DNA from: Escherichia coli
GTDB lineage: Bacteria > Pseudomonadota > Gammaproteobacteria > Enterobacterales > Enterobacteriaceae
NCBI RefSeq assembly: GCF_003334335.1
Contig: NZ_QOWQ01000160.1
Reading direction: 5' to 3' (one strand)
DNA: 678 bases
The translations under genes were made by a program, and so were the position numbers. This document shows, one piece after another, positions 1-678 of the stretch; position 1 is the first letter of the stretch; every line of letters begins with the position of its first letter. The notes under the pieces were generated by a model. It worked only from the letters and a program-made list of their open reading frames with translations, had not been told where the DNA came from and made no database searches.

Positions 1-43
1 TACTCCGTGACTGCTCTGCCACCCTTTTTAAAGTGAATTTTGT

Positions 44-70
44 GATGCGGTGAATGCGGCTATGCGCACG
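44..70. repeat. Three imperfect tandem ~9-bp repeats with an ATGCGG core
   Basis: GATGCGGTG (44-52), AATGCGGCT (53-61), ATGCGCACG (62-70). The first copy lies within the inner end of the left inverted-repeat arm. Confidence 0.4.
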
Positions 71-84
71 CGGAACAGTTAAAA

Positions 85-105
85 CCGTAAAGTGGTCTTT
101 TACGG
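85..105. other. Short hairpin-capable inverted repeat (CCGTAAA, 7-nt loop, TTTACGG); on the - strand it is followed by TTTT
   Basis: 85-91 CCGTAAA pairs with 99-105 TTTACGG. Reverse complement of 76-84 is TTTTAACTG, giving a weak intrinsic-terminator-like shape on the - strand only. Confidence 0.25.
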
Positions 106-135
106 GGCGTAACGGGCATCCTTCTGTATTCCGGC

Positions 136-157
136 GTTAATTGTTAACTGGTTAACG
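136..157. promoter_or_regulatory. Tandem GTTAAC palindromes / three GTTAA repeats (GTTAATT-GTTAACTG-GTTAACG); candidate operator for an unknown regulator
   Basis: GTTAA at 136-140, 143-147 and 151-155 with 7-8 bp period. Two full GTTAAC palindromes (143-148, 151-156) are separated by TG. Located about 55-75 nt upstream of ATG 212. Confidence 0.3.
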
Positions 158-199
158 TCACCTGGAGGCACCAGGCACCGCATCACAAAATTCATTGTT

Positions 200-204
200 G
201 AGGA
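200..204 (+). promoter_or_regulatory. Shine-Dalgarno-like motif (GAGGA) for the 212-400 ORF
   Basis: GAGGA with a 7-nt spacer to ATG 212. Confidence 0.5.
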
Positions 205-211
205 CGCGATA

Positions 212-400
212 ATGGAAACGTTATTACCAAACGTTAATACGTCTGAAGGTTGTTTTGATATTGGTGTTCTGCTCAGTAACCGGGAGTTTACGGAAGATGC
301 CATTAAGATGAGAAAATATGAACCTTATCTTCTCAATGATAATTCCATACTTTCCAGAATTGCCCTTCTTGAACTTGGTATTATCGGAGAACAGCAGTGA
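212..400 (+). CDS. Hypothetical small acidic protein, 62 aa (METLLPNVNTSEGCFDIGVLLSNREF...GIIGEQQ); function unknown
   Basis: ATG at 212-214 is the first start after an in-frame stop (TAA 110-112). GAGGA at 200-204 sits 7 nt upstream. ORF ends at TGA 398-400, overlapping the next start. Hand count: about 10 acidic vs 5 basic residues. No homolog recognised from memory. Confidence 0.55.
   Translation: METLLPNVNTSEGCFDIGVLLSNREFTEDAIKMRKYEPYLLNDNSILSRIALLELGIIGEQQ
386..390 (+). promoter_or_regulatory. Shine-Dalgarno-like motif (GGAGA) for the 397-585 ORF, lying inside the upstream ORF
   Basis: GGAGA with a 6-nt spacer to GTG 397. Confidence 0.4.
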
Positions 401-585
401 CTTCAGCATTTGCACTGGTGATGACCGTTTTTCTTATAACGGGTGAGCCACAAAATGTGATTACCGGAATTTATGACAGTAAGTCATCCTGCATTCAGGT
501 AAGGGACGAACAAAAAATCCCCGGTGAATGCCTCCCGTTAAAAAAAGTATCGCTGAACCTGAATAACGAAATACCGGCTGGATAA
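397..585 (+). CDS. Hypothetical small protein, 62 aa, with N-terminal hydrophobic segment (SAFALVMTVFLITG) and two Cys; candidate small membrane or exported peptide
   Basis: GTG start at 397-399 overlaps the upstream stop as GTGA, a classic translational-coupling arrangement. GGAGA at 386-390 sits 6 nt upstream. Alternative in-frame starts are GTG 418 and ATG 421, neither with an SD. Stop is TAA 583-585. Confidence 0.45.
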   Translation: MTSAFALVMTVFLITGEPQNVITGIYDSKSSCIQVRDEQKIPGECLPLKKVSLNLNNEIPAG

Positions 586-597: not shown

Positions 598-678
598 ATT
601 AACGCCATACCAACGGATTAAAAATGCCAGCAATGGCAGGGATTCGTTCACCCTGAAATCTGTAATGAGGTTAAAACA

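Follow-up and report, generated by a model that had tools for sequence, protein, structure and literature searches.

The question raised by this locus is whether two small, AT-rich genes that follow a leader of ordinary composition were brought into the host from elsewhere, and whether the drop in G+C between leader and genes marks the point of entry. We analysed the window, a stretch of 678 nucleotides of Escherichia coli DNA, within its 40.7-kb parent locus in E. coli STEC2018-607 (L001), where it matches a chromosomal lambdoid prophage at 100%. Very probably the window belongs to a lambdoid prophage of the Qin/PPompW type and is the dicF-dicB-ydfD part of its early-left operon (dicBp, PL-like), a setting in which AT-rich genes are ordinary. 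A preliminary description had proposed an accessory or mobile, horizontally acquired origin for the two genes, and in this it was right; it had also set the leader apart as a reference distinct from the acquired cassette, which fails because the leader belongs to the same mobile element. The features of the window are the following.

1-24, plus strand: 3' half of the DicF small RNA (3' arm of the terminator stem), by a partial Rfam DicF match
25-29, plus strand: T-run of the DicF intrinsic terminator, by sequence reading
32-196, plus strand: predicted structured leader RNA related to STnc100/PasD, a multi-stem junction with a long closing helix, by cmscan, fold and conservation
34-52, plus strand: 5' arm of the predicted closing helix (the 'repeat' of the preliminary description), a perfect 19-nt inverted repeat with compensatory changes
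133-159, plus strand: predicted 10-bp leader hairpin, GGCGUUAAUU/GGUUAACGUC, present in the minimum free energy (MFE) fold
161-175, plus strand: predicted invariant leader hairpin CCUGG-AGGCA-CCAGG, by viral-contig scan
176-194, plus strand: 3' arm of the predicted closing helix, pairing with 34-52
200-204, plus strand: Shine-Dalgarno sequence of dicB, GAGGA, by sequence reading; its last G lies 8 nt before the ATG at 212
212-400, plus strand: dicB, 62 aa, cell-division inhibitor family (Pfam DicB, NCBIfam NF049927, RefSeq WP_000449172.1, PHROG 1251)
386-389, plus strand: Shine-Dalgarno sequence of the second gene, GGAG, inside the 3' end of dicB, by sequence reading
397-585, plus strand: ydfD-type gene (DUF1482), 62 aa, GTG start (Pfam DUF1482, RefSeq WP_000199480.1, PHROG 1092)
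575-596, no strand assigned: 7-bp G+C-rich inverted repeat across the stop codon of the second gene, found by a terminator-like scan on the minus strand only, with a weak T-run
624-678, plus strand: conserved lead-in to the exonuclease gene, 92.7% identical to K-12

The first gene belongs to the dicB family. Its product matches Pfam DicB (PF05358) at 4e-38 over residues 1-62 of 62, scores 111 bits against NCBIfam NF049927 (cutoff 100) and is 61% identical to K-12 DicB, with the differences mostly in the C-terminal third. Its position is also that of the DicB family, downstream of dicF and under a dicA/dicC-type (cI/Cro-like) switch: in L001, Cro lies at 18210-18437, an HTH repressor at 18514-18921, DicF at 19973-20024 and dicB at 20212-20400. 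A longer dicB, with an in-frame upstream extension, is annotated in some phages; here a 13-nt difference in leader length breaks that extension, which speaks for the ATG at 212 being the real start.

The product of the second gene matches Pfam DUF1482 (PF07358) at 3e-15, residues 4-61 aligning with model positions 1-57 of 57, as well as PHROG 1092 at 1e-32, and BLASTP aligns it with the K-12 lysis protein YdfD at 48% identity over the full length and without gaps. No NCBIfam name model matched it at E ≤ 0.01, and RefSeq names it only 'DUF1482 family protein'. Its start overlaps the stop of dicB by 4 nt (GTGA at 397-400; ATGA in the K-12 equivalent), which suggests that the two genes are translationally coupled. 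When two 90%-identical alleles were compared, the dicB and ydfD-type frames were intact and of the same lengths in both, and third codon positions accounted for about half of the substitutions. The minus-strand or alternative-frame ORFs at 100-303, 224-415, 318-446 and 54-140 were set aside as mechanical, being unannotated in every record examined.

In K-12, DicB binds MinC and brings it to the septum through ZipA, blocking Z-ring formation, and it also stops ManYZ-dependent phage DNA entry (PMC6832061). YdfD causes lysis of dividing cells, reportedly through inhibition of IspG, and lysis is prevented by co-expression of DicB, which blocks division (PMC8835842). From the identities of 61% and 48% and from the conservation of both gene order and overlap, we infer K-12-like activities for both window alleles. 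The window DicB would block division through MinC and ZipA and would block phage entry like its K-12 orthologue, the MinC/ZipA activity being projected across 61% identity to the studied protein, and the ydfD-type protein would be expected to cause division-dependent lysis via IspG.

How unusual, then, is the composition of these genes? Exact counting bore out the hand counts of about 49, 38 and 43% G+C made earlier, with 48.8% for 1-211 (103/211), 37.6% for 212-400 (71/189), 42.9% for 397-585 (81/189) and 40.1% for 212-585 as a whole. By Fisher test, the leader compared with ORF1 yields p = 0.026, with ORF2 p = 0.27 and with the two combined p = 0.046; without the G+C-rich DicF tail (1-24) the leader has 47.1% G+C and differs from the cassette at p = 0.12. 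A single change-point search placed the best break near 181, which was not significant (permutation p = 0.32). When percentiles were taken from 40 kb of context (prophage plus host flank in L001), dicB fell in the lowest 2.8% of prophage 189-nt windows and the lowest 1.4% of host-flank ones, and the cassette in the lowest 2.8% (prophage) and 1.2% (host flank) of 374-nt windows; ORF2 was unremarkable (lowest 11% and 6%, respectively). The cassette is thus more AT-rich than its leader by simple counts, and dicB is low for its 40-kb surroundings, but as a step inside the window the difference is weak. With 49.9% G+C overall, the prophage part would not have stood out by composition alone: the atypical values are those of particular small genes, dicB among them, and not of the prophage as a whole. 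The host flank has 50.5%, and the claim of foreign origin, against which a host value of around 40% would have spoken, stands.

The first ORF does use AT-rich codons, as had been remarked. By codon position its G+C is 0.49/0.32/0.32, against 0.49/0.37/0.43 in ORF2, giving GC3 values of 31.7% for dicB and 42.9% for the ydfD-type gene. With host-flank codon usage the same proteins would be expected at 45.6% and 46.7% G+C, against 37.7% and 43.2% observed; roughly half of the dicB deficit is due to amino-acid composition and half to AT-rich synonymous codons. Codon adaptation index (CAI) values, calculated with Sharp and Li weights that were checked only by the sensible values they gave for ompA (0.77) and fabA (0.52), came to about 0.18 (dicB) and 0.24 (ydfD-type gene), against medians of 0.27 for the prophage and 0.31 for the host flank, and dicB had the third-lowest CAI among 37 prophage genes. 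Across the alleles of K-12 Qin, Tritos, mEp460 and HannyBb, the leader has 46.5-48% G+C, dicB 35-36.5% and ydfD about 43.5%. Because the pattern recurs in such divergent alleles, it is a stable property of these genes rather than noise.

Evidence on mobility comes from the surroundings of the window and from its distribution. By RefSeq annotation, the prophage takes up about 24 kb of L001 (1-24459) in a lambda-like gene order, with terminase, a lysis cassette, RusA and the Q region, O/P-type replication genes and a Cro/repressor pair. Its early-left operon runs from a ydfA-like gene through DicF, dicB and the ydfD-type gene to an exonuclease, an excisionase-like gene and the integrase. These last three lie 0.1-4 kb downstream, the exonuclease ATG only 3 nt past the window end (CDS start L001 20681) and the integrase 3 kb away, where it adjoins host yccA (start L001 24867). 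A look for integrase, phage or tRNA genes nearby, which had been suggested, therefore succeeded for the first two; ARAGORN found no tRNA gene at the integration site, nor anywhere else along L001, a 40.7-kb locus that does not extend to the other end of the prophage. In O157:H7, a sister prophage does abut a tRNA-Ser, beside mtfA.

Some version of the window region is present in 4,634 of the 5,426 complete E. coli genomes, at a median of 2 and a maximum of 9 places per genome, and the allele-specific part (324-623) in 794 of them, with no more than 4 copies in any one. The module was seen at at least four chromosomal sites (yccA, ompW, tRNA-Ser by mtfA and the K-12 Qin site), with the window allele adjoining ompW in strain E2865, and in deposited free phage genomes as well. 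Taken together, the several sites, the free phages, the polymorphic presence and the nearby integrase indicate a mobile, accessory origin; the polymorphism and the multiple sites also answer the suggestion that the cassette might hold a conserved syntenic core position. Among the window's matching places in E. coli assemblies, 143 are plasmid-borne. For Qin-type prophages it is textbook knowledge that dicB and ydfD are toxic, are carried on the prophage and spread horizontally. The dicB-ydfD module is therefore already known biology, and its mobile origin is real but ordinary; what is useful here is a clean annotation of the window, together with a correction of how the leader's mobility and the 'repeat' are to be understood.

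The leader deserves closer attention than its composition would suggest. In cmscan, window 22-244 aligned to the entire STnc100 (RF02076) model at 36.8 bits (E 2e-6), and five related loci scored 33.5-40.1 bits; since the leader does not reach the family's gathering score of 47, we term it related to STnc100 rather than a member. Its MFE is -81.9 kcal/mol (z -4.1), with a closing helix formed by the perfect 19-nt inverted repeat 34-52/176-194. Among 28 distinct dicF-type leaders, 98.2% of the cells in three helices are paired and 6 of 24 pairs have changed on both sides, values that none of 500 shuffles reached; two of the pairs with changes on both sides in this alignment lie in the hairpin at 133-159. 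The arms of the closing helix suit each other better within a leader than between leaders (mean duplex energy -30.0 kcal/mol for own arms, -25.3 for arms of different leaders). At 161-175, the STnc100-type copies carry CCGGG-AGGCA-CCCGG, and a viral-contig scan that let the two variable hairpin positions take any base gave just two combinations, both Watson-Crick: 32 T..A and 98 G..C. Window 25-197 is nearly invariant across phages even where the flanking genes differ.

These results bear directly on the 'repeat-bounded element' of the preliminary description. We considered whether the 19-nt inverted repeat could be transposon- or MITE-like and rejected this, as the arms co-vary in the manner of an RNA helix and enclose conserved hairpins. 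The repeat is, judged by its compensatory substitutions, the closing helix of a predicted RNA and not the ends of a mobile element, and the idea of a mobile-element boundary falls with it. By sequence comparison, the leader is the best-conserved part of the mobile element, as mobile as the genes behind it. One part of the leader does vary: window 85-125 is 13 nt longer than in K-12 and has a hairpin of its own at 85-105.

The conserved junction and hairpin motifs of STnc100 are present in the leader along with covariation-backed helices. Shared with STnc100 (RF02076) and PasD are the GGUGAAU junction, the UCACC-NGG-AGGCA-CCN-GGCACC hairpin and a closing helix. The leader differs in its second helix, GCGGCUAUGCGCACGC, where STnc100/PasD have CCCCC-UGUGCGG-AGGGG; in its closing helix, which at 19-21 bp is much longer; and in its place, which is within the early-left operon, after dicF and before dicB or kil, whereas STnc100/PasD have been published near late-region Q and esterase genes. 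In literature covering STnc100 and PasD, we found no description of the dicF-dicB leader as a relative of either.

Phages that share the leader stay similar up to about window 197, where the closing helix has its 3' end. What follows the leader varies from phage to phage: dicB-ydfD, kil, an ORF of some 280 aa (49-50% G+C) or other genes. At the level of phage mosaicism, 'cassette' is thus an apt term. Comparison with K-12 Qin places mosaic breakpoints elsewhere, at 323/324 (inside dicB, at about codon 38) and at 623/624; the leader and the 5' third of dicB move together, and the C-terminal third of DicB together with the entire ydfD-type gene forms the divergent allele.

What accounts for the G+C step? 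The ordinary G+C of the leader (47-49%) probably follows from its being conserved, heavily base-paired RNA, namely the DicF terminator and an STnc100-like fold, and the two small toxic genes are AT-rich in the same way as their divergent alleles and the analogous kil genes. Small early genes of lambdoid phages are usually AT-rich and poorly adapted, and we infer that the low G+C represents this usual AT bias and the weak codon adaptation of non-essential lambdoid early genes; possibly it also helps to hold toxic products low. Because leader and cassette belong to one mobile element, the step between them marks no acquisition boundary in the host and does not establish that the cassette entered it apart from the leader. 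A donor of lower G+C might nonetheless have supplied the cassette separately, behind an existing leader, so that the step would be a recombination junction. Phages do swap at the leader junction, as the end of similarity near 197 and the almost unchanged leader ahead of kil, the ~280-aa ORF or the other genes that replace dicB attest, but the K-12 Qin breakpoints are not at 211/212, and the 5' third of dicB goes with the leader. Moreover, tblastn found relatives of DicB in Escherichia phages only and of DUF1482 in Escherichia and Klebsiella phages only, with no low-GC donor lineage for either. We therefore regard a separate acquisition of this kind as unlikely.

Sampling noise in short segments, without biological meaning, would agree with the permutation result and with the weak contrasts of the trimmed leader with the cassette and of ORF2 with the leader, but it would have to produce both a dicB in the lowest 1.4-2.8% of 189-nt windows over 40 kb and a ranking of leader over ydfD over dicB that is kept in alleles with only 61% and 48% protein identity; it is the least credible of the explanations considered, and we give it very little weight. 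Selection for low G+C and rare codons, whether for poor translation of toxic proteins or as a target of H-NS/Rho silencing in the lysogen, has more to recommend it. Both K-12 products are toxic on expression (PMC5069750; PMC8835842), the CAI of dicB is near the bottom of the prophage range, half of its G+C deficit is synonymous, and the functionally analogous kil genes are equally AT-rich. The same observations are, however, compatible with simple mutation bias, and small prophage ORFs that are not toxic are just as AT-rich (a hypothetical gene at L001 19293-19667, 37.3%; a DUF7167 gene, 37.2%), which leaves selection a doubtful, if conceivable, addition to the AT bias of lambdoid early genes that we favour.

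A gene behind the DicF terminator raises the matter of how it is transcribed. The full DicF gene lies at L001 19973-20024 (Rfam RF00039, 70.1 bits against a gathering score of 48), and only its last 24 nt are inside the window. As the terminator T-run at 25-29 precedes dicB, dicB transcripts must read through it. In K-12, DicA represses dicBp, and the polycistronic RNA is cut by RNases III and E to yield DicF; transcripts of 1,146 nt (ydfABC-dicF) and, by read-through, of 1,608 nt (ydfABC-dicFB-ydfD) have been described, with no internal promoter (PMC10448788). Consistent with that report, a scan found no sigma-70-like promoter inside the window. At position 21, in the DicF terminator stem, the window carries an A in place of the G of K-12 and most phages (GCCACCC instead of GCCGCCC); cmscan marks a non-standard pair there, and one viral contig (L126) has the same change. 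This A might weaken termination and allow more read-through into dicB.

Downstream, an intrinsic terminator after ORF2 was considered and rejected, the plus strand offering only a hairpin without a proper T-run. A second small G+C-rich hairpin, at 625-638 in the exonuclease lead-in, likewise comes without a convincing plus-strand T-run.

The conservation and covariation of the leader and the exchange of what lies behind it are the basis of a further reading, which we put forward tentatively and consider less likely than not. The dicF-dicB leader may be an undescribed early-operon branch of STnc100/PasD that serves as a cis gate for the toxic small genes behind it, with the AT-rich cassette as its exchangeable payload. 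The dicB ribosome-binding site begins a few bases past the closing helix, and possible modes for such a putative gate are read-through of the DicF terminator, RNA processing or stability, and access to that ribosome-binding site. One conserved structured leader ahead of different division-inhibitor cassettes could guide work on how the expression of toxic genes is controlled, and the leader as a shared front end of toxic small-gene cassettes is a thread that might repay experiments.

Known relatives help to place the locus. The K-12 Qin dicBF operon (ydfABC-dicF-dicB-ydfD-ydfE) has in common with it the order of DicF, leader, dicB, ydfD with a 4-nt overlap and exonuclease, the dicA/dicC-like switch upstream and the same G+C ranking, with 87% identity over 1-323 and 93% over 624-678. 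It differs in the start codon of the second gene (ATG in K-12 Qin, GTG here) and in being cryptic and located at the Qin site, whereas the window prophage looks complete and adjoins yccA. The PPompW-type STEC phages and prophages (LC5678xx) match the whole window at 96.2%, at protein identities of 100% for DicB and 98.4% for the DUF1482 protein. Tritos and mEp460 are functional phage genomes with the K-12-type allele and the gene order of the window. In this group, the integration site and neighbouring early genes are unlike those of the window prophage, which is normal mosaic variation. In Stx-/Evi-type lambdoid phages, kil occupies the same slot between the same leader and the exonuclease gene; like dicB it is a small AT-rich ORF (38-42% G+C), but it encodes an unrelated 77-aa protein annotated as Kil and is followed by no ydfD-type partner.

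Related RNA elements occur elsewhere too. In the late region of the window prophage itself, canonical STnc100-type motifs (TCACCGGGAGGCACCCGGCACC) occur twice on the minus strand, at L001 8601-8622 and 9085-9106, about 480 nt apart and between a hypothetical gene (9387-9584) and a SASA esterase gene; counted with the leader, this makes three copies of the predicted RNA fold in one prophage. A 51-nt core of the leader (window 132-182) is found at 96% identity on a 90.5-kb plasmid, possibly a phage-plasmid. The T4-like Aeromonas phage AP1 has the 3' end of DicF followed by the leader at 87.8% identity (MT713136.1 249945-250152; L131 2501-2708), in a stretch without annotation close to the record's end, and this copy could represent transfer, contamination or an assembly chimera.
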